Source: Zestosphaera tikiterensis
Lineage (GTDB): Archaea > Thermoproteota > Thermoprotei_A > Sulfolobales > NBVN01
Length of the DNA stretch: 32,000 nucleotides
Direction: 5' to 3'
Assembly (NCBI GenBank): GCA_003056265.1
Contig: NBVN01000002.1
Coordinates: 270,001 to 302,000 of the forward strand
Positions 6,816 through 31,472 of the stretch are shown here, piece by piece. Both the position numbers and the translations under genes were made by a program. The notes under the pieces were generated by a model. It saw only the letters and a program-made list of their open reading frames with translations, did not search any database and was not told the DNA's origin. The number at the start of each line of letters is the position of its first letter. The first letter of the stretch is position 1.

Positions 6816-6831
6816 CGCATTACACCACCTA

Positions 6832-7926: not shown

Positions 7927-8052
7927 TTTTAACTATACACCACCTACCCACTTATCACCTTAAGCATAGATTCTACTAAGGTTTTATATTTTACGATTTG
8001 AGATATACGTTGCGTAGTAAGCAATAGCTTAACACATAACGTTAACGTATTG

Positions 8053-8976: not shown

Positions 8977-9088
8977 TTAAGACACATGTTAATTTTTCAT
9001 AAAAACTTAAAAAAAGACCAACATAAACGTTGCGACTTCCGTGTTAAGATATTTAACTGAAATGCAAATTAAGATTTGGTGGCTAAAC

Positions 9089-15906: not shown

Positions 15907-16126
15907 AATAGGGACTAATCCGTTACGTTTATCGTCATTACTGTAGCTCCGCCTAAAAGATGCCCTGCTAATGAGCAGAAGTCCAAGCTTAGATCTTAAC
16001 TCTAAGTCAAAGCAGTACTATCGTCGTGTTTAAAGACCCCCTCTTTTCAACAAAATATAGTGGTGTCGACGACTAACATATAAAAATCCATATCACTAAG
16101 GGTGTTTTAACCGTTAAGTCCATCGA

Positions 16127-16137
16127 TAAAAATTATA
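16127..16137 (+). promoter_or_regulatory. Putative TATA box for the tRNA-Thr gene
   Basis: AAAAATTATAA lies about 30-40 nt upstream of the mature tRNA 5' end. Confidence 0.35.
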
Positions 16138-16165
16138 AGGTGTGGTGTTATGTTATTTTGATGGT

Positions 16166-16239
16166 GCCGCCGTAGCTCAGCCGGGTAGAGCACCGGCCTT
16201 GTAAGCCGGGGGTCGCGGGTTCGAATCCCGCCGGCGGCT
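16166..16239 (+). tRNA. tRNA-Thr (anticodon UGU)
   Basis: Hand-folded cloverleaf. Acceptor GCCGCCG/CGGCGGC, anticodon stem CCGGC/GCCGG with loop CTTGTAA (anticodon TGT), and T-arm GCGGG-TTCGAATC-CCGC. No encoded CCA. Very GC-rich stems. Confidence 0.9.
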
Positions 16240-16269
16240 TAACTCACGCGTAAAAGTTTATATACCTCT

Positions 16270-16307
16270 CATGAGTTCCCATTTAATGGAGGTTTCGGGA
16301 ACTCATG
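16270..16307. repeat. Perfect 11-bp inverted repeat spanning the integrase start codon
   Basis: CATGAGTTCCC (16270-16280) and GGGAACTCATG (16297-16307) are separated by 16 nt containing GGAGG. The right arm includes the integrase ATG (16305-16307). Confidence 0.8.
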
Positions 16308-17603
16308 GCGGAATTCAATTCGGAATTCGTGTCTGATGGTGATTGGTTTGTAAGTGTTAATGTTGATGCTGTTGATGATGAGGCTAGGCGTAGTATTTTA
16401 GAAGTTGTTAAGAATAAGTTGGGTTTTACTAAGGCGTGTGAGGTCTTAGGTATAGTTAAGTCGAGTTTACATAGGTATTTAAGTGGTGAGAGGAGGGTTC
16501 CTAATGAAGTTGTTAAGAATGCTTTGAAGTTTCTAACTAAGTCTGAGTTTGAGTCGATAGTTGGTGATTGGGGTAGGTTAAAAGCTTTAGGTGTTGTTAA
16601 GGAGGGGGGTTTAATAGATTATGGGTTAGCTCTTAAGATTTTAGCGTTAGCGTCTAAAGACGAGTATTTAAAAAATGCGATGCTTAAGTTTATAGTTCAA
16701 GAGTTTAGAGACGATTTAAGGAAGATGTTAGGGATAAGCTTAGCAGGCGTTAAGCTTGAATGGAGTGAAGACTTCGAACACTTCCTAATGGAGCGTAAGA
16801 AAAGAAGGAAAGTCAAGGATTTTGAAACGCTTAAGTACTACAAATCCATATTCACGAAATACCTGCAGGGTAAGGAGCTTAGTGAGCAGGTAATCGATTA
16901 CGTTGTTAACCATAAAAATAAATGGCTTAGAAACGTGTTCAGACACTACATACAATACCTATATTACAAACGTAGGATAAGCCCAGAAACGTTCGGGTGG
17001 GTAATGGAGGTAGTTCCTTCAAGAAGCTATAAACTTGACGTTAGACCATATCAAATAAGCTTGGAGGAAGTTAAGAAAACGCTGAAGTTCCTTAAAATCA
17101 ATCATCAAACGTATTACGTAGTCTATAGGGTAATGCTTGAGTCGGGTGCTAGGTTTGAACACGTGTTAAAAATGATTAAAGAATGGGACCCTGACGAAGT
17201 AATTGAAATACCTAACGTAGGTATTGAAAGCAGTAGGCTAGTATGCTTTGAAGATAGCGACTTCTGTCGATACTACATGGGATTAAAAGGCTCTGAAAAA
17301 CCCTGCGAGTGGATATACTTCAGCATAGAGACGCTAGATATGCTTGAAGAAATAGCTCCAACACATATAAACAGATCACCAATAACTAAATACGCTAAAA
17401 GGCACGAACTAATACTACCTAAATACATGAGAAAAATAGCTTGGAGGTTAATGATTAAAACAATACCTAGGGAAGTCGCTAGATTCATACAGTCTAGATT
17501 TGGAGAATTGAGAATATCTGAGGCTAGATATGAAGATCTGCTAAGTGAAGCAGACGAATCTTATCTAAAATACCTTGAACATCTTAAGCAGTTAACACTA
17601 TAG
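16305..17603 (+). CDS. Tyrosine-recombinase-type integrase (archaeal, intact pNOB8-type-like) with N-terminal HTH
   Basis: 432 aa. HTH-like TKACEVLGIVKSSLHRYLSG. The C-terminal half has candidate catalytic residues ESGAR(FEH), YMRKIAWR and IQSRFG...SEARY, an R..xxR..R..Y pattern as in archaeal integrases. It is adjacent to a tRNA gene. Confidence 0.7.
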   Translation: MAEFNSEFVSDGDWFVSVNVDAVDDEARRSILEVVKNKLGFTKACEVLGIVKSSLHRYLSGERRVPNEVVKNALKFLTKSEFESIVGDWGRLKALGVVKEGGLIDYGLALKILALASKDEYLKNAMLKFIVQEFRDDLRKMLGISLAGVKLEWSEDFEHFLMERKKRRKVKDFETLKYYKSIFTKYLQGKELSEQVIDYVVNHKNKWLRNVFRHYIQYLYYKRRISPETFGWVMEVVPSRSYKLDVRPYQISLEEVKKTLKFLKINHQTYYVVYRVMLESGARFEHVLKMIKEWDPDEVIEIPNVGIESSRLVCFEDSDFCRYYMGLKGSEKPCEWIYFSIETLDMLEEIAPTHINRSPITKYAKRHELILPKYMRKIAWRLMIKTIPREVARFIQSRFGELRISEARYEDLLSEADESYLKYLEHLKQLTL

Positions 17604-17688
17604 TTTAGACTATATAGTTATATTTAAACTTAAGAATACTATCATTAAAGTATTTATTTTTGAGATACTGAAATATCTAGGGTTCACA

Positions 17689-17994
17689 ATGAATGCATGG
17701 CTCTATGTTTTTGATGAGTTTAGACCTCTTGATATAGAGTCTTCTGTATTGCTTAGATTGGCTAGAGATGATCCCGTTAAGCTTTTTGATATTGTTAGAG
17801 ATGTTGTTGAGGATTATGTTGGTGTTGTTAGGGATGTGAGGATTCATGATATATACATTGATCCTTATACACATGAGGTATTAGTAGAGTTTATAGCTGT
17901 TTGCGACAGTGGCGAGATATCTGTTAAAATTATTTATTCTGATAACCCCATAGCAATGCTTAGAAAGTATTACAGATTTGAGAGTTTCAGGTAA
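17689..17994 (+). CDS. Hypothetical protein (island-encoded)
   Basis: 101-aa ATG-initiated acidic ORF in an AT-rich segment. No motif recognised. Confidence 0.4.
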   Translation: MNAWLYVFDEFRPLDIESSVLLRLARDDPVKLFDIVRDVVEDYVGVVRDVRIHDIYIDPYTHEVLVEFIAVCDSGEISVKIIYSDNPIAMLRKYYRFESFR

Positions 17995-18067
17995 CACTCT
18001 GATAATACTGTAGCAGAGCATTTTAACTACTTTTTCCAGAAACTCTATAGTAGGTGCTACAGAGCTT

Positions 18068-18223
18068 ATGCCAATACTAGCCACAACCAGGGTTGGAAGA
18101 TACTTTAGAACAACAATACCAAGAGAAGTTAGAAAAATTCTAGATATAAACGAGGATGAAGTTATTGAGCGGATATTTGAAGATGGTAAAATTGTTATTA
18201 GAAAGAGTGGGAGAAATGGTTAA
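18068..18223 (+). CDS. AbrB/SpoVT-domain protein (antitoxin-like), 51 aa
   Basis: Below the track cutoff; my translation is MPILATTRVGRYFRTTIPREVRKILDINEDEVIERIFEDGKIVIRKSGRNG. TTIPxEVRKxL is the AbrB-fold swapped-hairpin signature. Confidence 0.55.
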   Translation: MPILATTRVGRYFRTTIPREVRKILDINEDEVIERIFEDGKIVIRKSGRNG

Positions 18224-18418
18224 ATGCCCTTACTGCGGCTACGAATCAAACATAAACGAGTTTAAAACTCCTTAGAGATCCTTGGAGGTTTAGGTTCTAC
18301 AGAGTTAGGATGCTCCAATGCCCTAAATGTCATGGAGTATTTATTCAACCATTATTATGGGCTGTCTTCAAAGGATAAGGAGATTAAGTTCACAATTAAA
18401 GTAAAGCCTAGGAAATGA
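18216..18418 (+). pseudogene. Frameshifted zinc-ribbon gene remnant
   Basis: Frame 0 reads MVKCPYCGYESNINEFKTP-stop (stop at 18273). Frame +1 continues from the A-run at 18264-18267 as LLRDPWRFRFYRVRMLQCPKCHGVF. Frame +2 continues from about 18344 as FNHYYGLSSKDKEIKFTIKVKPRK-stop. The two CxxC halves of one ribbon lie in different frames, and the start overlaps the AbrB stop (ATGGTTAA). Confidence 0.45.
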
Positions 18419-18782
18419 ACGGAGATGGCTATGGCTGAAAAGCCTGCAGAGAGAACTTACGCTACCAATTATAATGCCTGAATACATGTAGAGTCTCATG
18501 CACCCAAAAAGAAGTTGAATACATCCTAAATGAATTGAAGAAAATAAAATCAGATATTATGTTTACTTAGCAGTCCATGTCTCTATCTCAACGGCGATCT
18601 TACCCTCAGGAAATACTTAGTCGCTAGAGAGGTGGATCTCTAGGAAAATTGTTGATAAAATTGTCATTTATAGTAACTCATGTTATAGGATTTGATGATC
18701 TGCTGACAGCTGTATTTTTCGATATAGCTTGAATCCTGTCGTCTCACCTAGGTACAGGTGAAATCGCAATAAAAGGAACTGA

Positions 18783-18850
18783 GAGTTACTTATGAGGTTT
18801 TAGAAGCCCCTGAAAAGCTAATTCCTTTGTAAGTGTAAATTTACACTAAG
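18783..18850 (+). repeat. Dispersed repeat family, copy A (contains perfect 14-nt palindrome GTGTAAATTTACAC at 18833-18846)
   Basis: TGAGGTTTTAGA (18793-18804), a 27-nt spacer, then AGTGTAAATTTACACTAAG. This aligns with the reverse complement of copy B at identical spacing. Confidence 0.7.
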
Positions 18851-19194
18851 AGGGGAAACCTCCAACCATTCTGGGACTAAGCTTTAATAAAGCTGAGGAC
18901 AAGGCAGCTATCGTTAAAAGCTACTTAGCATACGGAACGGTTTCACTTGTGACACTCTATTTGGCAACCCTGGCTGAAGCATATATTATATAGGGTAGCT
19001 GACGTCGGAATATAATATGCACTAAAGGGAACAAAATGACTTAGTGAATATTTTCGGGGGTTATAGCTACTGGAAGAAGCACATCATTAGCGAAAACTAC
19101 CTTATACAGGTCGCTCAGCAAAACCTAAGTCAAGCCCTCCAGCACTAGAGGAAAGCGGATCCATACCGTATCTCATCATCTCTCATCACTCATT

Positions 19195-19395
19195 TCATTC
19201 ATTTTTTATCTCTCTCCGTAATTCATCAGATATGAGGGATTTTTCAGCAAGCCAAGTAAGCACTATACTCCTCACCAGCTCAGCATCATCACTGCCCATA
19301 ATGCCTCTCAGCCTTTCTATAAGTTTCCATTGTTTATCGGTAAATGTCACTTGCACTCTTTTTGCTTTTTCTTTGGCTTCTTTGCTATGTTTCAA
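19195..19395 (-). CDS. Ribbon-helix-helix (CopG/MetJ-like) DNA-binding protein
   Basis: 66 aa, TTG start. KRVQVTFTDKQWKLIERL (beta-strand plus helix 1), then GSDDAELVRSIVLTWL (helix 2). Divergent from the helicase operon. Confidence 0.65.
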   Translation of the reverse strand: MKHSKEAKEKAKRVQVTFTDKQWKLIERLRGIMGSDDAELVRSIVLTWLAEKSLISDELRREIKNE

Positions 19396-19481
19396 TATGC
19401 TCTACCATGCTACATGTAAAACACATTAGTTTATAAACTTTTAAGCATTTTAATAATGGCTATTTAACATTTACAGGAGGT
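19396..19481. promoter_or_regulatory. Divergent promoter region between the RHH gene and the helicase operon
   Basis: 86-nt spacer with the 10-nt palindromic TATA-like GTTTATAAAC (19429-19438), a second A/T box TTTTAATAAT (19448-19457) and an AGGAGG SD-like element (19475-19480) before TTG 19482 / GTG 19488. Confidence 0.45.
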
Positions 19482-22400
19482 TTGATTGTGTCTTACGGTA
19501 ACCCGAAACTGTATGAGGAGCTAGCTCACCACGTCATAGAGTACTTGAAGAGCAGATATCATACTGAGGCGCCACACATATCTCTTTTATCGCCTGAATA
19601 CACCGTAGTGGCAAAAATTAAGTCATATACGCCTCGACCAACGCTAGGGGTGCGACCTGAAGAAGATGAGGATGAATTCATTCCTGAGGTTCTTGCAGAA
19701 CTTCTAGACCCCACAAGAACTACAGGTCATGCTACGCACGGCGTTGAAGCTACATTCAGAGACTTTACAACTAATTCAGAAGTAGCTATGGAGACAGTAT
19801 TCTACATTAGAAAAGCTCCCCCTGTAGAGTTTAAGAAAGTAACTATAAATGCTAAGCTAAACGGAGACAAGCTTGGAGTAAAGCTTACTGTTGAGGATGA
19901 TGATCAAGGGGCAAAAATCTATGAATCTGAATGGCGTTATATAGAGTTAAAGCAGGGTCAGTTGCAGGCGATTTTTGCTTTTGGATGGCCCGACATAGTT
20001 AAAGAAGCTACCGACATAATTTCAGGGGCGCTGTATCCAGGTGCTGAGACAGTAGAGTTTACAGACCTAAATACTATTGAAGCACTCTCTACTGCGGAGC
20101 TTACTAAAAACAACGAAAGATTCTTCTTTTTACCTCCACTTAGTAAAAAGAGGTATGCAGACTCCGTGAATTATTTCGCTGTCCAGAACTTTTTATACGA
20201 AGTTAAGGTCGCAAAGAAAGGCGACGAATTAAAGGTTACTCTAATCTTAAGGTATATAGCTCCTTCTTTAATTAGTAGAAATACCTCGAAATGCGTTCGA
20301 GTTGGTGAGGAGCTAGGCTTCCCTACGTATGTTTATATAGGAGATCATAGGGATAGGTGGAGCATCCACCACCTGATGGAAGTTGAAAGTAGGCTCTGCT
20401 GGAAGAACGCACAACCTGATTGGAGGTGGAAACGGACGTTAAATAATCGACAGTATTCTGGCCTTCACAACTTAATACCTATAGGTGCTTTAGCTGTAGA
20501 GGATAGCGACTATAATTCAACTAACAATTGCCTATTGCTCAGGGATTGGCATGTAGAGGCAGAGATGATATATCCGATAAAAAAGAGCAAGAACAGCGTC
20601 GAGGAGTCCTTTCAAAAAATAGAGAAAGCAATCATTCAGGATGCTAAGTCTAGAGGGGTAAAAATAGACGAAGAAGCTTTAAGGAAAGCTTTTAAAATTG
20701 TTTTAAAAGCTTTTAAAGAGTCGTATCCTAGAATAACACATCTCTATGAATTTCAGGAAAAGGCACTTTACGAAGGCTTGAAAGCTTTAATTGCTGGTGA
20801 TCATAAAGCCTTTGTCCTACAAGCTAGGACTGCTGGCGGAAAAACCCTAGCGTTTCTATTACCAATACTAACTTATGTAGTTTACGCGAAGCTTACCCGA
20901 GTAAGTAAAGAAGGAGTAAAAACCATATTCTTCTATCCAACTATAGCTCTTCAAAACGATCAGGCATCAACCATTTTCAGAATGCTTTGGCACATAAATC
21001 TAGATTTACACCCTGAGACCATATCTCTCGGGTTGTTACACCGTTATATACCTAAAAGATCCGAAACAGCTGAAGAGCGGGAGCTACGGCTAAGGTGCCC
21101 ACTCTGCGGACATAGGTTATTAATATCTTGGAAATCCATTCCAGACACAAACGTGAATAAAGAAGTAATTATGTGTAGCAATGACTCATGTCGGATAAAT
21201 AATCCAGACAGCTTTGAAGGGAAACTTCTACAAGCGACGATTAAGGCTTCTCGTGATGCTATATATTCAAGTCCTCCAGATTTACTCATCGCCAATCCAG
21301 ACATAATTAACGCTAGACTTACCTTAATGGGAAGCGAGGATCCAGCTTCTCTTGCTATACTAGGCAAACATGTCTTTGTTTGTGCCACATGTGGTGCACT
21401 TTATGATAGAGATCTAGGTTCCCGTCCATTAAAGTGCAACGTATGTAAATCAAAAAATATCCGTAGCGTACGTTTTACATATCCTGAAATAATCGTAATC
21501 GACGAAGCTCATCTACTTCGAGGTGCCTTTGGGGCTCAAGTTGCTCATGTTTTAACCAGGCTCGAACAAGTTATAAGAAGGTTAAACGGGCTTTCAGAGA
21601 GCTGGAGACCGACCTACTTTATCTCTAGTGCCACACTCAACAACCCTAAATCAAGGACTCGAGAACTTATAGCTACAGACTTAGATGGCATTATCGAGAT
21701 TTCTGCCGAACCCGAATTAGAGCAAGCCGAACCAACTCTAAGGATTCACACATTCCTTATGCCTAAGCTTTATTCTCCAGAAGCGACAGCATCGAGGATA
21801 GTTGAAGCTATATATTCAGAAGCGTCGGCTCTAGCTGATGTTTATAAAGTGAAATATGCCAAACAGCTAAAAGATCTTCGCGAAAAGATGTTTGGTGATA
21901 GGAACCCCGCTACATTAGTATTTGTTAACAAAATATCTGAAGCTAACGAGCTTTTAAGTCATATAAAGACTTTTGCTCGTGATACGAGAAGTGACGGACA
22001 CACTACAGACTACAGGGACGATAGAGTACGTGTAGAAGATGAATTTAGCAGAGGAAACTTAGACATTATAGTAGCTACGAGCGGACTCGAAGTAGGAGTT
22101 GATTTCGACAGGGTAGACATAGGAATAATCTACGGCATGCCATTCTATATTTCGGATTATACGCAAAGAATCGGCAGGATAGGTCGGCGTCAACATTGCG
22201 TAATATTTAACGTCTTTATGCCAGACAAACCTATAGATCATTTTTACTATAAAAACTGGAAGATTCTCTCCGACGGATCTTTAAGAGATATACACATGAG
22301 ATCTGAAGCTTATAGAATCGACAGGGAAAATCCAGAAGCCATTAGCAGGGCTGCACAGAGAGCTGTTCTTGACGTAATATCTACGATGAACAATACAGAC

Positions 22401-22844
22401 ACGTTCCTTTACAAGTCAATAATGGCACAAAATAAGAAATTTGAACAGGAAATAATGGATATATTGAACGTTGTAGAGTCAGAGCTAACAAAGCATCTTC
22501 CACTAGCATTGAGGATCAGCGACGTTGCGCGAGCCATATCTATAGCGAGGCAGTTCATAGACGAGATAAGAAACGCTGTTAAAATCCACGGAAATCTGAT
22601 TAAAGCTATAAATGAGGGTCTTGGGGCCTCACTAAGTCAGCTTTCTAGTTTAAGGACGCTAGAACCTGAGACAAAATACAAATTCGAGCCTGTCGGTGAA
22701 GAGAGAAGTAGGAACTTGCTGTATTCTTTTAGGCACTGCCTTCCAGGTCAGGTAATAAGTTATAGAGGCAACTTCTACGCTGTAGAAATGTTCTCAGGCG
22801 AGTCTTTGCGCCTGTTTCAGACACGAGGGGATCGAGATGAGTAG
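19482..22844 (+). CDS. Large SF2 DExH helicase (DrmA/MrfA-YprA-like) with unknown N-terminal domain and Zn-ribbon insertions
   Basis: 1120 aa. Motif I ARTAGGKTLAF (aa 448-458), Ia YPTIALQNDQ, PPDLLIANPDII (YprA-like), II VIDEAHLL (DEAH at 21501-21512), III SSAT, V IVATSGLEVGVDF and VI QRIGRIGRR. Two Cys4 ribbons lie at aa 539-570 and 634-655. Aa 1-420 have no recognisable motif. Confidence 0.85.
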   Translation: MIVSYGNPKLYEELAHHVIEYLKSRYHTEAPHISLLSPEYTVVAKIKSYTPRPTLGVRPEEDEDEFIPEVLAELLDPTRTTGHATHGVEATFRDFTTNSEVAMETVFYIRKAPPVEFKKVTINAKLNGDKLGVKLTVEDDDQGAKIYESEWRYIELKQGQLQAIFAFGWPDIVKEATDIISGALYPGAETVEFTDLNTIEALSTAELTKNNERFFFLPPLSKKRYADSVNYFAVQNFLYEVKVAKKGDELKVTLILRYIAPSLISRNTSKCVRVGEELGFPTYVYIGDHRDRWSIHHLMEVESRLCWKNAQPDWRWKRTLNNRQYSGLHNLIPIGALAVEDSDYNSTNNCLLLRDWHVEAEMIYPIKKSKNSVEESFQKIEKAIIQDAKSRGVKIDEEALRKAFKIVLKAFKESYPRITHLYEFQEKALYEGLKALIAGDHKAFVLQARTAGGKTLAFLLPILTYVVYAKLTRVSKEGVKTIFFYPTIALQNDQASTIFRMLWHINLDLHPETISLGLLHRYIPKRSETAEERELRLRCPLCGHRLLISWKSIPDTNVNKEVIMCSNDSCRINNPDSFEGKLLQATIKASRDAIYSSPPDLLIANPDIINARLTLMGSEDPASLAILGKHVFVCATCGALYDRDLGSRPLKCNVCKSKNIRSVRFTYPEIIVIDEAHLLRGAFGAQVAHVLTRLEQVIRRLNGLSESWRPTYFISSATLNNPKSRTRELIATDLDGIIEISAEPELEQAEPTLRIHTFLMPKLYSPEATASRIVEAIYSEASALADVYKVKYAKQLKDLREKMFGDRNPATLVFVNKISEANELLSHIKTFARDTRSDGHTTDYRDDRVRVEDEFSRGNLDIIVATSGLEVGVDFDRVDIGIIYGMPFYISDYTQRIGRIGRRQHCVIFNVFMPDKPIDHFYYKNWKILSDGSLRDIHMRSEAYRIDRENPEAISRAAQRAVLDVISTMNNTDTFLYKSIMAQNKKFEQEIMDILNVVESELTKHLPLALRISDVARAISIARQFIDEIRNAVKIHGNLIKAINEGLGASLSQLSSLRTLEPETKYKFEPVGEERSRNLLYSFRHCLPGQVISYRGNFYAVEMFSGESLRLFQTRGDRDE

Positions 22845-24081
22845 TTACGCACCTTCTCAGCGATTAATTGAAAGGTTGGCGGAGGAAATTAGAGTAGCAG
22901 GTCAACAACATTTGATGTTACCCAACGATGCTGAAATGATCGCAAGGGCCTTGCTGGGTCACGACAGGACTCTCAGAGCGGAGCTTCTTATTCCAACGCA
23001 AGTAGTAGCTAACGTTAAAACTCGGTTAGCAGATCTAGAATATGTACGATGTGTCCGTTGTGGGCAGGTATATAACGCTAAAACCCAACCAAGCCTACTG
23101 AAAAATTCTAAGTGCCCCAAATGTGGGGGTTCTTTAGTAGCAGTACCTCTTTGGGTAATAACCGCTAGGAGTGTCAAACCTGCTAATAGGAGGATTACAC
23201 CTAATCAGGGAATAGAACTAACAGTTTCTATAGAGACTTATACAAAAACACACATTCGTAATCGAAATGCGGTAGTGCCCAAGCAAATCCATATAGGTGA
23301 CAGATCCAGACCTATAGCTACTCTAGAGTTTATATATGGCTTTGAATCCCACAATCCTGCCCCTGTTCATAAACACAAGGTGTTCAAATATATGTTGGCA
23401 CTTATGCCAAGCGAATCTATAACAAAGCCCGTGACAATAACTGCATTTGCTTACAACGATTCCACGTGCGTGGAAGTAAATACAACAACAGGATTCTTCT
23501 CTGGAGTATCAAAAGTCCTTTACTGCAAAAATATGGAAATACTGCAAGCAACTCTACTTCACAAAGCAGGTCATCAGAGAAGTAGTAGCAGATCTCGAGT
23601 TGCTGTCCTTGATATGTCGCAGTCTCAGCTTGGTGGAGCCGTAGTTAGAATACCCGTAAGGTATATCCAGACTCAAGGTCTAGTTGTAAAGGTTGATGAG
23701 AATAGTGTGAAGAATGTCCTTAAGGAGCTTGATTATAGTGATGACGATGTATGGATTGCTCTCCATACAATAAGCCATGCGTTTCTCGTCAGTTTACCCC
23801 AGATAACAGGACTTGAAGGGGCAGATTTTGGAGAAGCCATAAGTACAAGTACGAAGGAGATTGCCGTTTATGATAACTCCTTTGGAGGGCTAGGCGGGAT
23901 AGAGGGTATTGTTGACACGTCTGGTGGTGTTTTAACGCCTAACTATGAATGGAGTGTGAGGGAGTCGTATAAATGTCCGCTCGCTTGTACTAAAGCGTGC
24001 AAGGCTTGTCTGTTTACGGACTCGTGTTTCATGTTGAATTGGCGCCTTGACAGAAGAATTTTGGAGAGGCTGGGGTGGTAG
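22837..24081 (+). CDS. DUF1998 (MrfA-type Zn-binding domain) protein, DrmB-like
   Basis: 414 aa. ATG overlaps the helicase stop by 8 nt (ATGAGTAG). The C-terminal LHTISHAF...VYDNSFGGLGGIEGI...CPLACTKACKACLFTDSC...NWRLDR matches the DUF1998 hallmark. An extra N-terminal ribbon reads CVRCG...CPKCGG. Confidence 0.8.
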   Translation: MSSYAPSQRLIERLAEEIRVAGQQHLMLPNDAEMIARALLGHDRTLRAELLIPTQVVANVKTRLADLEYVRCVRCGQVYNAKTQPSLLKNSKCPKCGGSLVAVPLWVITARSVKPANRRITPNQGIELTVSIETYTKTHIRNRNAVVPKQIHIGDRSRPIATLEFIYGFESHNPAPVHKHKVFKYMLALMPSESITKPVTITAFAYNDSTCVEVNTTTGFFSGVSKVLYCKNMEILQATLLHKAGHQRSSSRSRVAVLDMSQSQLGGAVVRIPVRYIQTQGLVVKVDENSVKNVLKELDYSDDDVWIALHTISHAFLVSLPQITGLEGADFGEAISTSTKEIAVYDNSFGGLGGIEGIVDTSGGVLTPNYEWSVRESYKCPLACTKACKACLFTDSCFMLNWRLDRRILERLGW

Positions 24082-24883
24082 GACGAGCGTAGAAGTCGAA
24101 AGCGTGAGCAGAAAGATAGTAGAGCTCTTAAGTGAAGAGAAGCGGCCTCTAACTACGGAGTACATCTGCCTTAAGTTAAACATCGCAAAATCTTTAGCGT
24201 CTTCAGCCTTATATAAACTTCTGAGAGAGGGAATCGTAGAAAGGGTTTACACCGAGACGTACGATCCTACACAGCCATTTGACACCGCAATGTGGGTGCT
24301 TAAGGAAGGGGTAAAACAAGCTGAAGGAGCTATAAAACCTGCTGAGGGAATCGAATCTAAACATACAAAGCTAGTCCTTTCCATGCCTCTCTCGATGCAC
24401 AGTTTAAGGGCAGACCTGCTAAACAGGTTTGAGGCCCTCGATCTTCACGACGCGTACACCCACGTAATTGAAATGGCTAGGCAGGAACTGAAGATAATGT
24501 GCCCTGTAATTGACGCATATGCTCTATATCCGTTAATAAGTAAAATATTAAGTTCAAAAGGGCTGAAAATCCGAGTTCTTACAGAGATAGGTAAGAGCAG
24601 AGACGTCATGCACCTCTTGGAGTCCTTAGGAAGTAAAAGCATTGAGGTGAAAAACGCTGAGAAAACAGTGAGATATGAAGGTTATGAAAGAAAAGCGTTC
24701 GGAATCCACGCTAAATTAGTCATAGCTGATAATGAGGTTGCTCTTATAGGTAGCTTCAACTTATCTAGGCACCACTACTTAGTTAATTTCGACATAGGCT
24801 TCTTAATATACGATCAAGCAGTTGTAAACAAGCTTTCTCTAATATTCGAAGAGATGTGGAACTATGTCTCTGCCACCGATTGA
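24047..24883 (+). CDS. wHTH-fused phospholipase-D-family (single HKD) nuclease, DrmC-like
   Basis: 278 aa. HAKLVIADNEVALIGSFNLS at aa 221-240 (24707-24766) is the HxK(x4)D(x6)GSxN motif. The N-terminal KIVELLSEEKRPLTTEYICLKLNIAKSLASSALYKLLREGIVERV looks like a winged helix. The start is uncertain: TTG at 24047 overlaps the upstream gene, and a GTG near 24104 is an alternative. Confidence 0.8.
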   Translation: MTEEFWRGWGGRTSVEVESVSRKIVELLSEEKRPLTTEYICLKLNIAKSLASSALYKLLREGIVERVYTETYDPTQPFDTAMWVLKEGVKQAEGAIKPAEGIESKHTKLVLSMPLSMHSLRADLLNRFEALDLHDAYTHVIEMARQELKIMCPVIDAYALYPLISKILSSKGLKIRVLTEIGKSRDVMHLLESLGSKSIEVKNAEKTVRYEGYERKAFGIHAKLVIADNEVALIGSFNLSRHHYLVNFDIGFLIYDQAVVNKLSLIFEEMWNYVSATD

Positions 24884-26033
24884 CCTGTCCTTATTCGATA
24901 AGAAGGTAAGGGGCAAGATAAGGCTCGCCGTTTCTATGGGCCAACTCCTGCATTTTATATACCTAGCCGTGAAAAACTTCCCCGATCGTGTGGCTAAATA
25001 CAGCTCATTTTTACAGCTGATAAACGATAAAGAATTCGCTGCTGAAGTGCTGAGAAAAGAAAGCAGATTCGGCGGACGCGGAGGAAGCCCCTTAAAATAC
25101 CTTGGACTTGTTAACGCCATTGCTCAGAGAGGCTACTCACGCCTCTTAGAGTTGGCGGATATTGTTTGGGATTTAACCGTATATCACAGCAGAATAGATC
25201 CTAAAACCTTGTTTAACAATATAGTTGGTCTAGCTTCAGAAAAGCACTACTCCTTATTAGATGAAATGCGGATTCACGGCAAAGCCACCTATAAGCGAAG
25301 CCCGTTTATAATGAACATCAGGCATTATAACTACATTACCGTGGAGGTGGAATACGGTGGCAGGAGCGAAGCTCTCGCAAAAACGTTAATATATATAGGT
25401 TCGTTGGCGGATACCAATGAATCTTTAGGTCTTTTTGCAAGGTTTTCAGTGCGAAGCATAGATGCTGAGCACGTAGTGAGGAAGCAGGAGGAGGGCTGTG
25501 CTCATAGGCTGATTAAAACGTTCAGACTCTATCCAACCGTTTTAAGGATGCAGAGACTCTCTTATAAAAGAGTGTACCCTGTGCAAAATCAGAGAAGCGA
25601 AGTTCTTAACATGCTGTCCGAGCTTTTCATAGATGATAAAAAGTTTGCCTCGCTGATTAACATGGACGTCCCTGCTAATATATTGGCCATGGCTCCTTCG
25701 ATATCGCTAGGCGGGGGATTATGTTTCGCTACTGCTTTTAGGGGAGAACTTCTTGACTTTTTAGGAATAGAGAAAGAAGCTAAAATTAAAGTAGCTGACA
25801 CAGTAATTAAAGCCATCCCATCATACTATTCCGTTCTTGATTGTCAAAAAAGCCCTGGGGACTACGTCTTTATGGTTTTCCACCCCTTTACAGCCCCTAA
25901 GGTTGGATTAGTGGTGGCGACCTACTCAACAAACGTTTTAGGTAGTCTTAAGCCTAAAAGAAGAAATGTTTCATCCCTAGATAATCTATTCCCTAAAGTT
26001 GAGGAAGTAGCAAAACTCCCCTCCGAAACGTAA
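24864..26033 (+). CDS. Orphan protein, fourth gene of the helicase/DUF1998/PLD operon
   Basis: 389 aa. ATG overlaps the PLD gene end by 20 nt. No catalytic or nucleotide-binding motif recognised by eye. Confidence 0.6.
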   Translation: MSLPPIDLSLFDKKVRGKIRLAVSMGQLLHFIYLAVKNFPDRVAKYSSFLQLINDKEFAAEVLRKESRFGGRGGSPLKYLGLVNAIAQRGYSRLLELADIVWDLTVYHSRIDPKTLFNNIVGLASEKHYSLLDEMRIHGKATYKRSPFIMNIRHYNYITVEVEYGGRSEALAKTLIYIGSLADTNESLGLFARFSVRSIDAEHVVRKQEEGCAHRLIKTFRLYPTVLRMQRLSYKRVYPVQNQRSEVLNMLSELFIDDKKFASLINMDVPANILAMAPSISLGGGLCFATAFRGELLDFLGIEKEAKIKVADTVIKAIPSYYSVLDCQKSPGDYVFMVFHPFTAPKVGLVVATYSTNVLGSLKPKRRNVSSLDNLFPKVEEVAKLPSET

Positions 26034-26294
26034 AAATAGACGTACCTAGCACCCGCTGAAGCTCCTAAAAGCCGTGGGCTCCAGCTATAGGGTTTAAGTA
26101 TGGATTTAACCTTTCTCGCACTCTTTACAAAGAAAGTGATTTAAAGCCTAATGAGGGAACTCAATATAACCCATACTAGAAACTAGAAAATCTACGCAGA
26201 GTTTGGACTAGTCTAAACTTTCTTTAAGGCTGTGTTGCTTAAGTAGGCGTTAGCTTCTAGCGTAGTTTCAAGCGTGAGTGTAAACCTAACTTCA

Positions 26295-26375
26295 CTTAAG
26301 TGCAAATTTACACTCATATAGGTTTCAACTCTTCAAGTATCTCTAAAACCTCAGGAAATCTAACCCCCTGCGTGT
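26295..26375 (-). repeat. Dispersed repeat family, copy B (inverted relative to copy A)
   Basis: The reverse complement reads CACGCAGGGGGTTAGATTTCCTGAGGTTTTAGAG, a 27-nt spacer, then AGTGTAAATTTGCACTTAAG. Confidence 0.7.
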
Positions 26376-26440
26376 ATTAGCTTTTTCAACTCGATACATA
26401 TTTTCAAGGTTGATGTTCATGCTCTCATTAGAGTTTGGAA

Positions 26441-26464
26441 TTAGATTTTCTGGGTTTGCGGGAG
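26441..26464 (+). repeat. Dispersed repeat family, partial copy E (left block only)
   Basis: TTAGATTTTCTGGGTTTGCGGGAG compared with the consensus GTTAGATTTCCTGAGGTTTTAGAG. Confidence 0.5.
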
Positions 26465-26549
26465 TTCTACCTGTGAAGAACATAATACAAATTTTCAGCA
26501 TCCATGCTAGTTATTATATATGTTAAAAATTGCGAGTTTTTGCTGCTTT

Positions 26550-27068
26550 TTAGGTTGGGTTGTTTGCTCCCTGCTTGTTTTGTGTTTCTTTTTCTGGTGT
26601 TTTAACCGTGTATGTTTTGCTGATTTCATACATCCATGCGTAGGCTGGTATCAACGCTATGTATGGGTCTTTCAGGAAGCATATGTAGAGTGTTTTCTTA
26701 TTTGGCCTCCTGTCTTCAGCTATGCGTACGCACCTGTCTTCAACTCCTTTAACGTCGAAAAGAATGAGTGTTGAAATCGCCAACTTATCCACCATTAGCT
26801 TGATAGCTTCAGGCTCTCCAACGCACAAGCCCGTGGTGAATTTACTGGAGTATATAATACATAACGCCGTGGGGAACAGCCTCTCCTTGTCGAAGCACAT
26901 GGCGGCCCCCGACCTTACGCCCCTCCTCATCCAGAGCTTTTCTTTCCTAGCAAGCTCAAACACGAGCGTGGCGAAATAATTTAGGGGGCGTCGGTGGTTT
27001 CTGTTGTAGGTCTCATACAGTATGATGTGCTTGCCGTCCTCATATATTATTTTTGTCTTGGAGTGCAT
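26550..27068 (-). CDS. Hypothetical protein (basic, island-encoded)
   Basis: 172-aa ATG ORF with no motif recognised. It is the longest ORF in this segment; the two plus-strand ORFs overlapping it have implausible compositions. Confidence 0.45.
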   Translation of the reverse strand: MHSKTKIIYEDGKHIILYETYNRNHRRPLNYFATLVFELARKEKLWMRRGVRSGAAMCFDKERLFPTALCIIYSSKFTTGLCVGEPEAIKLMVDKLAISTLILFDVKGVEDRCVRIAEDRRPNKKTLYICFLKDPYIALIPAYAWMYEISKTYTVKTPEKETQNKQGANNPT

Positions 27069-27220
27069 CCCAACACCCCACGCTCATCGTTACGTACAGG
27101 TCTGAAAGCTCCATAAAGCCTACGGCTATCCTTAGCTCTTGAACTATAAAGCTCACATACAATCACGCAATCCCCATCCTCACAAACCACACACATACCG
27201 CATCGACATGCGTACCTCAT
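27047..27220 (-). CDS. Possible small cysteine-rich protein (57 aa)
   Basis: Below the track cutoff; my translation is MRYACRCGMCVVCEDGDCVIVCELYSSRAKDSRRLYGAFRPVRNDERGVLGCTPRQK. It has 8 Cys, 7 of them in the first 22 residues, and its 3' end overlaps the start of the 172-aa ORF by 22 nt. Confidence 0.3.
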   Translation of the reverse strand: MRYACRCGMCVVCEDGDCVIVCELYSSRAKDSRRLYGAFRPVRNDERGVLGCTPRQK

Positions 27221-27327
27221 GAGAGTTTATATTCTCTTCGATCAAGCTCTAAAAATAGATCAACATTATCGAGAAATAGCCTTTCTGGATCTGGGGTTGA
27301 AAATCTAATTATAAGGGCTCAACCCCC

Positions 27328-27406
27328 CACGCGAGTTAAATTTCCTGAGAGGTTATCTAGGGAATCGAGCAAAGCATTTGAAAGTCTTGAAAAAGTGTAA
27401 ATTTGT
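27328..27406 (+). repeat. Dispersed repeat family, copy C (divergent)
   Basis: CACGCGAGTTAAATTTCCTGAGAGGTTATCTAG, a 33-nt spacer, then AGTGTAAATTTGTTC. Confidence 0.55.
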
Positions 27407-27595
27407 TCTTTTCAACTACTTCAAAGCTTTCGTGACTAGCTCAGTAACTAGTTTTGCTTACTTTGTTAAGCTTATCAAGGAAAGCTAAACGAGTAGATCC
27501 TCAGACCTCAATAACCCTTAGGGAAGCTAATCACTTAGAAAATCTAATTGCTTAGGGGATCTAACGCATTAGAAAATCTACCCCTCGATAAGTGA

Positions 27596-27664
27596 GTTAG
27601 ATTTTATGAGGTTTTAGACCTCATCCACAATGGATATCCCTCTCTTCATCCTTAATGTAAGCTT
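27596..27664 (+). repeat. Dispersed repeat family, copy D (divergent right block)
   Basis: GTTAGATTTTATGAGGTTTTAGA, a 36-nt spacer, then ATGTAAGCTT. In this copy ATGAGGT/ACCTCAT also forms a 7-bp hairpin (27606-27624). Confidence 0.55.
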
Positions 27665-27782
27665 AACAAACTCTTTATTACTGATTTAGAGTAGGAAAGA
27701 GATTGAGGTGTTCGAAGCTTTGTACATACATAGTTCAATAGTTAAATCTTTAAACTAAATTACTAAGAGTTATGTTGTAAGT

Positions 27783-28853
27783 ATGTACTCTTTCGGGTTG
27801 ATAGACTTGATTCGCAGGTTCGCTATATTCGCGTTCGCATTGATAATGATATTAGTACTATCGGCTTCGGTAACACAAGCTAGAGGTCCTGTTGCTGAAA
27901 GTTCCATTCAAGGTATTTATGTTGTTAGGATATATGGAAATACTGTTCTACTGCTTCTAAACAAATCTGCAATGAGGTTCATAAATGGGTTCTGGGTTGT
28001 GGAAGGGGTGAATATGGTTGACCTTACTCAGCAGATTCTCAACATTGTGGGTTCGTATACTGTTGAAGGAGCTAGAGCCGTCATCAGCGACGGTAAAGCA
28101 TGTGTAGTGGGTTACAATCGAAGCTGTATGGAGGTGGAGAGGCTCGGAGATGATTTTGCATATGTGGTTTCAGCTCTGATAAGGGCTGGTCTGCGGATCG
28201 GCTCCCTTGAGCTTTATAGACATAGCGATAATACCCTGAGGATCTTGATGGGTATGGGGATTGTTGAATCTGTAGGCATAGACAAGATCGTGAGTGCCCT
28301 CAGCACTCTGAATCGAAGAGTAGTAGTCGAAGAAGTTGTAGCGGTAGGAAGAATAATTTCATGCTTCGACGCGCCAGAGCTATGCAACGCTACAGCTTCA
28401 ACCCCATGCTTCACATCATTTGCTGAAACCGCGTACGGTCTTCAGATCACTTTGGGGTGCAACTGCGTTAAGAGGCTGGCTGAGGAGAGGAATACATCTA
28501 TAGATGAAGCTGTAGGCTTGATCTTAGAGAGATTAAAGCCTTTAGTAGACAAATACTTCGACCAGAGACCGCTAGTGGCTATAGAACCCGAAGTCAGAGG
28601 GGTACCACTACCACTAGTAGTACCAAGAACATCAACTACGAGCGGAAGCAAAGCCGAAGAACCTCAGCGATCAAATGCGGTTAACACTGTGACCTCCACA
28701 TCAACACCAATGAATACTCAGAACCTGGGAACTGTCAGTGTTGATAGGAACTCCATTTTGATGGCTACAGCATTTTCGTCAGTAGCAATAGCTTTAATCT
28801 TAATCATTGTATCTAAGCGTACTCTCATCAGGCATCGAACATTGAGCACTTAA
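27783..28853 (+). CDS. Secreted/membrane-anchored protein with Ser/Thr-rich stalk
   Basis: 356 aa. N-terminal hydrophobic signal/anchor (FAIFAFALIMILVLSASVTQARG), S/T/P-rich linker (PRTSTTSGSK...VTSTSTPMNTQ) and C-terminal TM helix (ILMATAFSSVAIALILIIV) followed by basic residues. Confidence 0.6.
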   Translation: MYSFGLIDLIRRFAIFAFALIMILVLSASVTQARGPVAESSIQGIYVVRIYGNTVLLLLNKSAMRFINGFWVVEGVNMVDLTQQILNIVGSYTVEGARAVISDGKACVVGYNRSCMEVERLGDDFAYVVSALIRAGLRIGSLELYRHSDNTLRILMGMGIVESVGIDKIVSALSTLNRRVVVEEVVAVGRIISCFDAPELCNATASTPCFTSFAETAYGLQITLGCNCVKRLAEERNTSIDEAVGLILERLKPLVDKYFDQRPLVAIEPEVRGVPLPLVVPRTSTTSGSKAEEPQRSNAVNTVTSTSTPMNTQNLGTVSVDRNSILMATAFSSVAIALILIIVSKRTLIRHRTLST

Positions 28854-29203
28854 TTCAAACATAAATCCTTTCTTTCCCGCATCCCTAGGGCTGAAAAGAA
28901 AAAGTGGTTTTCCATATTATATTATTATAGTACCTATAGGTGTAGGTGGGAAACCGCCTAGGGAGCCTAGGGAAAGTGAAGTTAAGCATTGATTAACTGT
29001 ACTTTAACAACCTCGTCGAAAATGTTATGGGCTAGTAGGGTAGGTCCCCAGCCATTTAAATGTTCTGCTACGAACACTCCGTGTCATTCCCGGTTGTTGC
29101 TTACATGTATTATAGTGTTTTACACACTAGTGTTGCAGGTTTGAGGAGGTCTTCTATTAATTCCGCACAGTATAGTTTATAGCTCTGAGAGCAGATTCTA
29201 TAG

Positions 29204-29533
29204 ATGATGGTGTCTATGCCTTCGACTGAGAAAAACACTCGAGTCGAGGTTAGGAAGGAGTTAGAGGTGCTTGAACAGGGTTTTGCTGAAAAGCACGGGA
29301 TGCAAGCGCGTATTGTTATATGTCCTGCAATACGCTTCGGGTCAGCGGATCCTCTAGACTACGCTCGGGGCACTACTAGTGCACCCACAGCTGTGGTACC
29401 CCAGGAGCAGAAGAAACAGGGGCTCGATGCAATAGCCGACATCATTAATGAAACAGACATAGTGGTCGAAAGGATTGAAAAGGCTCTTGGGTCTACATGG
29501 TCGTCTATGTCCGCTACTATAGCAATGTCCTGA
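29204..29533 (+). CDS. Hypothetical protein
   Basis: 109-aa ATG ORF with normal charged composition. TATA-like AGTTTATA lies 23-30 nt upstream (29174-29181). It competes with the antisense ORF 29354-29722. Confidence 0.35.
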   Translation: MMVSMPSTEKNTRVEVRKELEVLEQGFAEKHGMQARIVICPAIRFGSADPLDYARGTTSAPTAVVPQEQKKQGLDAIADIINETDIVVERIEKALGSTWSSMSATIAMS

Positions 29534-29723
29534 GGAGGTATATTGATGAACGCTGGAGACTAAACATAACTGATAAGCTGGTGAAGTTCGCCGAAGAACG
29601 GGATCTTTAAAGACATACACGGCGAGCACCGACTTGTGCGGATGTTCGTCGACATGGCTGGCCACGCCTAGGCGTTCCATCTTGTCAGCGTTTTCTAAAG
29701 GTGTCTTCAACATCGCCACCAAG

Positions 29724-31472
29724 TTACCTTATCTGTGGGAACAGGTAGTAGGCTAGGGTGGGCTCGCCTTGAGGGGTTCTTAGATTGAGGAGCACTGTTC
29801 CAGCGACAATCATGTAGAGAACTGTTGTGAACTCGTCACCATATTCTTTAGCCAGCTTGTCACCCTCTCCAGCAATCTTGTGTACAAGTGCGCTGTCGAT
29901 CCCGCTGAGGGCATCCACTGTTAAAACCAGCACGTCCACCCCGATTCTAGGTACCGGCACCACCCTAGATACGGCATTCGCGCTTCTCGCATTCGGGACT
30001 ATTACTACGAGGTACCTTGCTTCAGCAGCGCTTGGAACTTTGAGCTCTATCAGCTCTCTGAGCTTGTTTAGCGTGCTTGAGGATATGTAGCCTCTTCTAT
30101 CAGCTCTTAGTGCATGCACGACGAGGAATATTCTGTCGCTCCTAATATGTATGAAGTCTATCTGAGGCCCTCTTTTTCTCCTCCTTCCCTCCGATACGGC
30201 TCCCTGAGCCTCCTTGGAGTACGGCAGTTCCAGCCCGAGCGCCCTAATCGACTGATCCCTGTACACCTCGATCCCGCGATCCTGCCTGTAGACACCATGT
30301 TTTTGAAGTACTTGTTCAACTGCTTTGAGGATCGCATCCTTAACGATTTCTGGATCGGGTTGCGACATGCTTTGACTCCTGAGCTCTTCATAGAATTTCG
30401 AGAGCTTTTCTGCGAGCACCCTTATATTTCTGTCTCTTAGGAAGCCCAGCAGGAGCTCTGCTATGCCCAGTCCATTCAGTGATGCAACTGAATAGTTGGG
30501 GTAGGATAAGTAGCTACCGCCTTCGTGGACCTCAGCAATTATCCTCTCACTGAGGCTTGCTTTTGGAAGACTTGAAAGTGTGAGCACTGCAAGTCCGTGC
30601 TTATATTTTCTGACCTCTTCAAGCAGGCTGGAGCACTCGCCACCAGACGCGTTTGTAATGTAGAAATCAGCTATGCTTGCAATGACTTCGGCCAGCTCAT
30701 TGATGCGTTCAAGTCTGCGAAGCCTTGACCAGTATGCATCTAGGTTTACTATGCTTGCACCTCTGAACAGCTGGACGAATTTTCCCCTTGTGTAGCTGTT
30801 TCTAAACGCGCTCTCTATAGATTCCTCTGGGAACTCTCCGAAAAACATTTCAGCCCCAGGCGCCTCAGCAAGGCAGACCTTCAATATCTGAAGAGTTGTA
30901 GCTCTCTCAGCTGTAATCCGCTCACTCTGGAGGGCTAATATAAGCATGAACCTCCCAGCATACTTGTTTACCATAGGCACGAGCTTATCTCTTATATATT
31001 TGAGGGCTTCCTCTTCTGCTTCCGCAAGGTCGTCGAGTGCTAAGGCTATTCTGGCTGTCGGCGAGTTCTTGAGTGCGGTTTCAATCTTTTCGACAGTGCT
31101 CCTCAGAAAGTCTGCAGGTGCTCCCTCTTTTTTCATGCTGTTCTGACCTTCCCTGCCACCTTTTTCAGCGGTCTGCTCACCGAAGTTCACATATTCGAGC
31201 TTCCAAGAGCCTGAAAGATAGTGCTCTATGTACCTTATTACAAGAGTCTTTCCGCATCCTCTTCCGCCAAGGATCACAATAATGTTCTTGCCCAGCGCGC
31301 CCTCCCTAACCAGTGCCTGGAATATTGGGTTCTCGTCGAGTTTCTTCTTAAACATTTCCTTGATCTGCTGGAAGGATTGTCGCTTCGTCGCATCCTCCAG
31401 GAATTTGACTACCTTATCCAGCGTGCATACTCCACTGTCAGACACCACGGTTCCCACCCCCATATGTTTCAC
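29724..31472 (-). CDS. P-loop NTPase (AAA+/archaeal-ATPase-like) with long C-terminal region
   Basis: 582 aa. Walker A ILGGRGCGKTLV, candidate Walker B RIALALDDLAEAEEE, then LILALQSE. GTG start at 31472 or ATG at 31463. Overlaps the upstream ORF by about 26-35 nt. Confidence 0.75.
   Translation of the reverse strand: MKHMGVGTVVSDSGVCTLDKVVKFLEDATKRQSFQQIKEMFKKKLDENPIFQALVREGALGKNIIVILGGRGCGKTLVIRYIEHYLSGSWKLEYVNFGEQTAEKGGREGQNSMKKEGAPADFLRSTVEKIETALKNSPTARIALALDDLAEAEEEALKYIRDKLVPMVNKYAGRFMLILALQSERITAERATTLQILKVCLAEAPGAEMFFGEFPEESIESAFRNSYTRGKFVQLFRGASIVNLDAYWSRLRRLERINELAEVIASIADFYITNASGGECSSLLEEVRKYKHGLAVLTLSSLPKASLSERIIAEVHEGGSYLSYPNYSVASLNGLGIAELLLGFLRDRNIRVLAEKLSKFYEELRSQSMSQPDPEIVKDAILKAVEQVLQKHGVYRQDRGIEVYRDQSIRALGLELPYSKEAQGAVSEGRRRKRGPQIDFIHIRSDRIFLVVHALRADRRGYISSSTLNKLRELIELKVPSAAEARYLVVIVPNARSANAVSRVVPVPRIGVDVLVLTVDALSGIDSALVHKIAGEGDKLAKEYGDEFTTVLYMIVAGTVLLNLRTPQGEPTLAYYLFPQIR

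Follow-up and report, generated by a model that had tools for sequence, protein, structure and literature searches.

Inverted repeats around a DISARM-like cassette of Zestosphaera tikiterensis belong to an intergenic repeat family of a tRNA-Thr integrative element

In crenarchaeal viruses and plasmids, the operators of small ribbon-helix-helix (RHH) and AbrB-like repressors are short palindromes or tandem repeats situated in promoter regions, and recombination motifs have reportedly been found at the borders of variable regions in Sulfolobus conjugative plasmids. Elements of the pNOB8 type keep their integrase gene intact upon integration, whereas in the SSV type the gene is split. Acinetobacter plasmids carry pdif modules, which are subject to Xer-dependent shuffling (PMC13141974, PMC6449649). 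A dif site measures 28 bp and is composed of two 11-bp arms, for XerC and XerD, and a 6-bp spacer (PMC2958812); in the Acinetobacter dif-module system, hybrid sites mark recombinant junctions (PMC13141974). The core of DISARM defence systems consists of DrmA, DrmB (DUF1998) and DrmC, a phospholipase D (PLD) protein (PMC9142583). Here we describe a pair of inverted repeats, A and B, that bracket a DISARM-like cassette in a 32,000-nt stretch of Zestosphaera tikiterensis DNA (contig NBVN01000002.1, positions 270,001 to 302,000, forward strand; hereafter the window). An earlier note on this stretch had read the pair as bounding a composite mobile cassette, or a unit moved by recombination between repeats. 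The two copies turn out to be oppositely oriented members of a multi-copy intergenic family of an integrated element, and we tentatively favour their being junction or recombination sites of the element backbone that are bound by a dimeric protein.

The two copies are organized as follows:
18756-18851, plus strand: copy A, in a 900-nt convergent intergenic region, with a TATA-like m1 motif GAAATCGCAATAAAAGG, block 1 TGAGGTTTTAGA (18793-18804), a 27-nt spacer and the palindrome AGTGTAAATTTACACT (18832-18847).
26265-26437, minus strand: copy B, in a 516-nt convergent intergenic region, with an outer part formed by an m1 motif and GTTAGATTT, followed by block 1 (26342-26353), a 27-nt spacer and the palindrome AGTGTAAATTTGCACT (26299-26314); its inner flank (26299-26265) shows homology to the sequence on the right of a further site, F, in the variant contig L021.

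The resemblance between A and B is real. Their two-block core (18793-18851 on the plus strand, 26295-26353 on the minus strand) comprises block 1 at 18793-18804 (+) and 26342-26353 (-) and block 2, AGTGTAAATTT[A/G]CACT(T)AAG, at 18832-18851 (+) and 26295-26314 (-), with spacers of 27 nt each (18805-18831 in A, 26315-26341 in B); both blocks and their equal spacing thus stand as the earlier note had described them, as do the distances of 345 nt from A to the end of the RHH-like gene and of 262 nt from the end of the 389-aa gene to B. In a repeat search of the 32-kb window the pair emerged as its longest inverted repeat (55 nt, 75% complementary). Dinucleotide shuffles gave 0.01 expected matches to block 2 and 0.30 to block 1, against three and four observed, respectively, and the gapped local alignment of A with B scored 64 against 23.7 +/- 3.6 in shuffles (z=11), so that the similarity lies well above background. 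It extends, with gaps, over about 100 nt, some 40 nt further outward (A 18756-18850, B 26391-26295). Two details of the original description needed correction: we count 14 rather than 15 identical positions among the 27 of the spacer (P ~0.003 at a 25% background), and the perfect palindrome of copy A is 16 nt long (AGTGTAAATTTACACT), not 14. Chance is excluded as the source of the A/B similarity.

A and B are not unique. At least seven short intergenic repeats of this kind occur in the element (A, B, C, D, E, G and H), and an additional one, F, occurs in the variant contig:
27243-27410, plus strand: copy C, a degenerate full copy ending in the half-palindrome AGTGTAAATTT followed by GTTCT, fifth in the position weight matrix (PWM) ranking.
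27517-27580, plus strand: a tandem m1 array of the TTAGAAAATCTAA type, four 17-nt units resembling CTTAGAAAATCTAAT.
27559-27618, plus strand: copy D, the 5' half alone (GAGTTAGATTTTATGAGGTTTTAGA), with the third exact TGAGGTTTTAGA at 27607-27618.
L004 4954-5017, past the window end: site E, a perfect palindrome with TTTTTCTATAGAA 23 nt before it, which aligns with B over 64 nt.
L004 6271-6284, past the window end: site H, a palindrome with one mismatch (GAGTAAATTTACAC).
L004 6686-6701, past the window end: site G, the half-site AGTGTAGATTT followed by GTTCT.
L021: site F, ...TTTTTCTAGTGTAAATTT joined to ACACTTAAGT..., a perfect palindrome (AGTGTAAATTT followed by ACACT) where the main element has half-site G.

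A full copy consists of a TTAGA-N3/4-TCTAA-like, TATA-like motif (m1, m2, block 1) and, at a fixed distance from it, the 16-bp palindrome AGTGTAAATTTACACT; the stretch upstream of block 1, GTTAGATTT(C/T)..., is the reverse complement of m1. The gapped B-C alignment scores 60 (z=12), and the right arm GTTCT is common to the half-sites C and G. When a PWM was built from the sites, A, E, B, H, C and G were the six best positions in 40.9 kb. By nhmmer, PWM and k-mer scans alike, all six of these best palindrome sites are intergenic and lie inside the element, and none of the best sites falls in 16 kb of host flank; a recurrence of the repeat across the genome, which the earlier note had raised, was therefore borne out elsewhere in the element but not in the host DNA beside it. 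The 14-mer palindrome core, allowing one mismatch, occurs at 18833, 26300, 34611 and 35927 of the element and again at F in a diverged relative, where we estimate about 0.004 such sites by chance. In 44 kb, no 11-mers are more over-represented than the palindrome and the m1 sequence TAGAAAATCTAA, and all five sites matching TAGAAAATCTAA with at most one mismatch are confined to 26184-27581 (0.24 expected).

The orientations of the copies alternate, A (+), B (-), C (+), and the sites lie where transcription units or gene modules meet: A separates the integrase/AbrB/Zn-ribbon genes from the cassette, B the cassette from a 172-aa gene, C and D the 172-aa from a 356-aa gene, and E a 332-aa gene from the DUF5906 replicase gene, of which it is 220 nt downstream; G and H stand one on each side of a 122-aa gene. 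As the same family is found in other intergenic regions of the element, the bracketing of the cassette is not specific. The 172-aa gene (26550-27068, minus strand; no known family) and a 57-aa cysteine-rich open reading frame (27047-27220, minus strand; CxC...CxxC...C), which overlaps the start of the 172-aa gene by 22 nt, sit amid the repeat-rich region between B and C, and for this reason both are candidate repeat-binding proteins.

The element that carries these repeats is delimited by the following features:
16166-16239, plus strand: tRNA-Thr (TGT), the integration target (ARAGORN; Rfam RF00005, 75 bits).
16193-16243, plus strand: attL, a 51-nt direct repeat of the 3' part of the tRNA, with its partner attR at composite positions 40674-40724.
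16305-17603, plus strand: an intact archaeal tyrosine integrase adjoining the tRNA (Pfam PF16795, E 1.6e-25), with 100% identity to the integrase of Zestosphaera tikiterensis.

The right end was reached through JGI contig Ga0079640_1000192 (24,808 nt), which is 99.97% identical to window positions 16087-32000 and extends past the window end; its far end repeats the 51 nt of the tRNA 3' part (98% identity by blastn against the window), placing attR about 24.5 kb downstream, past the window end. The tRNA-Thr, the integrase and the distant att repeat together place everything from 16193 onward inside a plasmid-like integrated element of about 24.5 kb. It has the intact integrase next to a tRNA and the direct att repeats of a tRNA-integrating archaeal element of the kind that keeps its integrase, and this 24.5-kb tRNA-Thr integrative element, not the cassette, is the demonstrable mobile unit. 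Its genes include those for an AbrB-like protein (18068-18223), a Zn-ribbon protein, a Cas4-like nuclease, a DUF5906 replicase-type protein and a 579-aa AAA/ORC-like protein, together with many that have no known family.

The repeats do not coincide with the limits of the cassette. Nucleotide homology to related cassettes spans 19077-26015 only, which leaves A and B outside the shared cassette, by 208 and 280 nt, respectively. Five cassette homologues (L015-L019; 46-65% aa identity in the 389-aa gene) contain no copy of the repeat (nhmmer, E<1), nor is any of them flanked by another inverted pair. From these comparisons, the cassette did not bring the repeats along and is not, by the same evidence, a transposon. 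Since A and B belong to an intergenic family of the element, they are better regarded as backbone junction or protein-binding sites than as the ends of a jumping cassette.

Evidence that such sites may be crossover points comes from L021 (Ga0079639_1001123, 9.5 kb), a contig of a sister sample that is 99.98% identical to the element over 6,379 nt, up to the middle of the 122-aa gene, after which a stretch of about 90% identity covers the 3' part of this gene. Its homology to the element ends exactly at the centre of the perfect palindrome F. The right flank of F is homologous to the inner one of B (80% over 51 nt, E 6e-6). With the palindrome left out, the two flanks score 36 against 15 +/- 2.9 in shuffles, and 0 of 1000 shuffles reach 36, while F's right flank resembles none of those of A, E and G. 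Beyond it come another palindrome that has the same arms (GAGTGTA-AGCC-TACACTC) and a pair of m1 motifs. With a G-like left and a B-like right flank, F is a hybrid of the left side of G and a B-type right side, which is consistent with what a crossover inside the palindrome would leave. As regards the remainder of this contig, the 6380-9488 segment consists of the 90% identical stretch and then of unrelated genes, including one for a WbsX-type glycosyltransferase, which suggests either that a second, related lineage of the element exists or that the assembly is strain-chimeric.

The mechanism that we propose on this basis proceeds in three stages. First, a dimeric protein encoded by the element or the host would bind the palindrome; the sites would then serve as preferred crossover points for module swaps between related elements, as the one hybrid junction suggests; and the DISARM-like cassette, now devoid of its methylase, would be the cargo at present occupying the slot between two backbone sites. 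The notion of a unit moved by recombination between repeats thereby gains the L021 junction at the palindrome in its favour, but this is a single event and A and B themselves are not involved in it. If the sites are indeed crossover points, archaeal integrated plasmids would gain or replace defence cargo by module exchange at short backbone palindromes and not by transposition, and the palindromes would provide a sequence signature for locating cargo slots in other archaeal elements.

Several features recall pdif plasmids: several short recombination-type sites at the joints between plasmid gene modules, modules lying between oppositely oriented sites, with defence, toxin-antitoxin or resistance cargo between them, and hybrid sites whose halves stem from different parent sites, as in F (left half of G, right half of B). 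They differ in that the present host is an archaeon, the role of Xer here is putative and the hybrid junction is single, and in that conservation is restricted to a 16-bp palindrome with 5-8-bp arms, versus 28 bp with 11-bp arms; because the core is symmetric, the orientation of the sites is set by their flanks alone, unlike that of pdif sites. With the motifs of Sulfolobus conjugative plasmids, as these are said to be, the repeats share a 16-bp palindrome-like motif, present in several copies per crenarchaeal plasmid at the borders of rearranged regions; the sequence is different, and here the host belongs to the Desulfurococcales and the element is integrated.

A number of observations weigh against the backbone-site interpretation. 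The symmetric arms, of only 5-8 bp, are shorter than the 11-bp dif arms and than typical tyrosine-recombinase core sites; no dedicated recombinase was detected in the element besides its integrase; no inverted or excised A-B form was seen, all four covering assemblies sharing one arrangement; and there is one hybrid junction only, which bypasses A and B, in a contig that may be in part a strain-chimeric assembly at 6380, although the position at which homology ends is unaffected by this. Site H, between a TATA-like box and the Shine-Dalgarno (SD) sequence/ATG of a gene, fits an operator at least as well. Furthermore, searches with backbone proteins and with the repeat found no related elements. 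The two-block pattern TGAGGTTTTAGA-N20-35-GTGTAAATTT gave one match in GTDB genomes, in a Muribaculaceae bacterium and attributable to chance, none in IMG/VR, and five in JGI metagenomes (contigs of 25-41% GC) that had other spacings and no completed palindrome and are likewise chance; these negatives are weak evidence, since the source contigs themselves are absent from the results (apparently not in, or masked in, the collections). The 16-mer palindrome was found on 13 IMG/VR contigs with one site each, which is the chance level, and blastn of the B module against GenBank phages and viruses and PLSDB plasmids yielded no match. Close relatives of the integrase (L005-L009, 72-73% identity) are accompanied by unrelated cargo and lack the repeat, no homologue of the DUF5906 replicase above 40% identity was found, and nothing emerged from IMG/VR when the integrase, the replicase and the 579-aa protein served as queries. 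As far as the searched libraries show, this repeat family is undescribed, while the kind of feature is familiar.

The main rival reading, which we hold to be somewhat less likely, is that the repeats are promoter/operator modules, in which m1/block 1 would represent the transcription factor B recognition element (BRE)/TATA box and the downstream palindrome the operator of a dimeric element repressor (AbrB-like, RHH-like or another small protein). In its favour, site H (GAGTAAATTTACAC) has the TATA-like GGTTTATTAGC on one side and the SD/ATG of the 122-aa gene on the other, and GAAAGCTAATAAACC, the reverse complement of GGTTTATTAGC, occurs upstream of the divergent 332-aa gene, at a distance of about 32 nt, and is similar to the m1 motifs of A, B and C. 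The 27-nt spacing between block 1 and the palindrome in A and B, and the position of m1 20-23 nt upstream of TGAGG in both, suit archaeal promoter geometry, the archaeal distance from TATA box to start site matching 27 nt, and small DNA-binding proteins of the AbrB family are encoded by the element. Against this, A, B, E and F are situated in convergent intergenic regions without a downstream gene. TATA-like motifs stand at distances suiting a promoter, but four of the five full copies have no gene downstream. On this reading, transcription from copies in convergent regions would run antisense, or as counter-transcripts, into the RHH/cassette genes, the 389-aa gene and the replicase gene at their 3' ends. 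In addition, TTTTAGA matches poorly to the TATA boxes upstream of genes in the window, four tandem m1 units (27517-27580) would be odd for a promoter, and the half-sites and the hybrid junction F are left without an explanation. With crenarchaeal virus and plasmid operators, the repeats share short palindromes or tandem repeats in promoter regions, small dimeric DNA-binding proteins of the same element and, in H, a location between a TATA-like box and a gene start, whereas most full copies here are in convergent regions without a downstream gene, and binding is putative. If the sites are operators, they would define the regulon of a putative repressor of the element. Recombination and operator functions are not mutually exclusive.

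A stricter version of recombination at the backbone sites holds that the palindrome is the core site of an archaeal site-specific recombination system, a counterpart of dif modules acted upon by the element integrase, the host XerA or another enzyme, through which modules, a complete DISARM-type defence cassette among them, would be inverted, excised and exchanged between elements. We consider this unlikely. A (+), B (-) and C (+) alternate and there is one hybrid junction, F, a single event at a symmetric core. By hand alignment, only AGTGT-AAATTT-ACACT is conserved, and arms of 11 bp are symmetric at 5-7 of 11 positions and differ between copies. No xer gene is present in the window. Were this reading true, the defence cassette would, through the A/B pair, be a module that can be inverted or exchanged.

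The repeats might also lack any present function and be decaying copies of a single intergenic segment, an old inverted duplication happening to flank the cassette. Such an origin, which we regard as improbable, would account for copies that are 65-75% identical with indels, for the truncation of C, D and G, and for the lack of homologues in the genome, metagenome, viral and plasmid searches. It fits poorly with two blocks kept exactly while the spacer between them diverged (14/27), and with a palindrome core that recurs at four element sites and at F against the small chance expectation given above; exact blocks, a diverged spacer and a recurrent core point instead to selection on the motifs.

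That the repeats are replication-origin or partition sites, iteron- or centromere-like, with m1 arrays and palindromes bound by a Rep or partition protein, has in its favour the clustering of the tandem 17-nt array and the inverted m1/m2 copies at 26184-27620 and the closeness of palindrome E to the replicase gene. It is decidedly improbable; the element lacks any ParA/ParB-type gene, and A is isolated, 7.5 kb from the cluster. The array itself (CTTAGGGAAGCTAATCA / CTTAGAAAATCTAATTG / ..., its units being m1 or diverged m1) is iteron-like and lies in the 560 nt that separate the 57/172-aa genes from the divergent 356-aa gene, where it may be an origin or a regulator-binding array.

There is little likelihood that the repeats are genes for small non-coding RNAs, with the conserved blocks forming structural elements of the RNA. 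Copy A folds somewhat better than shuffles (z=-2.5) and an alifold consensus contains two hairpins, though with one-sided changes only; B reaches z=-1.5, C and E are at about 0, no compensatory changes or covariation were seen, and the palindrome occurs also alone and as half-sites. No Rfam family matched the repeats even at E up to 1, the tRNA alone attaining a gathering score (Rfam 15); at this threshold two sub-threshold chance matches fell in 18200-19500 and none in 26000-27800. A protein-coding origin of block 1, proposed because B and D both end in ...LDF[L/M]RF*, was rejected since the upstream frames of A and D are closed and non-codon indels abound in the upstream B-C similarity.

The first interpretation of the pair, as terminal inverted repeats of a composite or non-autonomous transposon carrying the defence cassette, is very improbable: an inverted pair does bracket the cassette, but outside A and B no target-site duplication exceeds chance (the best flanking direct repeats are 6-mers, of which 1.4 are expected over the scanned boundary range), no transposase or recombinase gene lies between them by Pfam or PADLOC, the limits of cassette homology, at about 19059 and 26015-26033, fall short of A and B by 208 and 262-280 nt, the homologous cassettes are repeat-free and more copies are present elsewhere in the same element. 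The composite mobile cassette is not supported, as each defining feature of a transposon is wanting, and searches for the same ends around other cargo in genomes, metagenomes and viral contigs gave chance-like matches of the two-block pattern only. With composite transposons, miniature inverted-repeat transposable elements and the repetitive extragenic palindromes and mosaic elements known as REP/BIME, the repeats share the inverted pair around cargo and the intergenic location of the copies, mostly at gene 3' ends; they differ by having neither target-site duplication nor transposase, by not standing at the cargo limits and, as far as tested, by being contained within one integrated element. 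As a caution, a defence cassette between inverted repeats should not be read as a transposon before the surrounding element has been checked for the repeats.

The cassette between A and B is composed of the following genes:
19059-19179, minus strand: remnant of a C5 DNA methyltransferase (codons 1-41, frameshifted), detected by tblastn with the L015, L016 and L017 methylases.
19195-19395, minus strand: a small RHH-like gene, 60-73% identical in aa to 53-70-aa genes of L015-L017.
19482-22844, plus strand: a DrmA-like DEAD/DEAH helicase (PADLOC DrmA, E 9e-126; Pfam DEAD, Helicase_C).
22837-24081, plus strand: a DrmB-like (MZB/DUF1998) gene (PADLOC DrmB, E 2e-39; weak Pfam MZB match).
24047-24883, plus strand: a DrmC-like PLD nuclease with an N-terminal helix-turn-helix (PADLOC DrmC, E 5e-20; Pfam PLDc_2, E 1.7e-16).
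24864-26033, plus strand: a 389-aa gene of unknown family, the conserved fourth gene and the right limit of cassette homology.

With DrmA, DrmB and DrmC all recognized by PADLOC, the suspected defence cassette proves to contain the DISARM core. The 389-aa gene has no Pfam, PADLOC or NCBIfam match and had been taken for an orphan; it has 14 homologues and, in each of the five loci read (L015-L019), comes after DrmABC with the gene order unchanged. The small gene, called RHH in the earlier note, is indeed a conserved gene at that place, adjoining the methylase in relatives too, but its RHH fold was not confirmed: it has no Pfam match, its best PDB sequence match is CopG/Arc/MetJ at E 0.55, its AlphaFold2 model is helical only and Foldseek gave no clear fold.

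L015-L019 carry, in addition, an intact 470-aa C5 DNA methyltransferase (PF00145), an HhH-GPD glycosylase and the 53-70-aa RHH-like homologue. In the window, codons 1-41 of the methylase are all that is left, frameshifted, and this remnant forms the left limit of cassette homology (blastn of 19077-19145 against L016); the glycosylase is gone. The truncation of the methylase to 41 codons and the absence of the glycosylase indicate that the system lost its modification module. A methylase-less DISARM-like system may be inactive, or may be tolerated without self-methylation, and the cassette offers a natural example of a DISARM-type system without a methyltransferase. Compared with DISARM as described (PMC9142583), the DrmA helicase, DrmB (DUF1998/MZB), DrmC (PLD) and the DISARM gene order are shared, and the relatives also possess the C5 methyltransferase; the differences are the 41-codon methyltransferase of the window and the HhH-GPD glycosylase, RHH-like gene and 389-aa gene that the relatives add.

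A few minor observations concern the element and the cassettes. The G+C content is 0.45-0.51 in 28000-32000 and 0.35-0.43 elsewhere in the element and in the host flank, and the element looks compositionally mosaic; its DUF5906 replicase-type gene is without close homologues, and the window also holds genes for a tRNA-intron endonuclease and a DUF1512 protein, which together with the archaeal integrase mark the host as an archaeon. A sub-threshold Rfam match to the C/D-box sRNA sR32 at 19113-19183 on the minus strand (17.8 bits against a gathering score of 40, E 0.045), which overlaps the methylase remnant, is probably due to chance. Among the relatives, the glycosylase is unusual as a regular DISARM neighbour, and the two halves of the system are rearranged with respect to each other: the glycosylase/RHH-like/methylase block is downstream of the DrmABC-389-aa block and on the same strand in L017 (8205-10556), and upstream of it and divergent in L015, L016 and L018.

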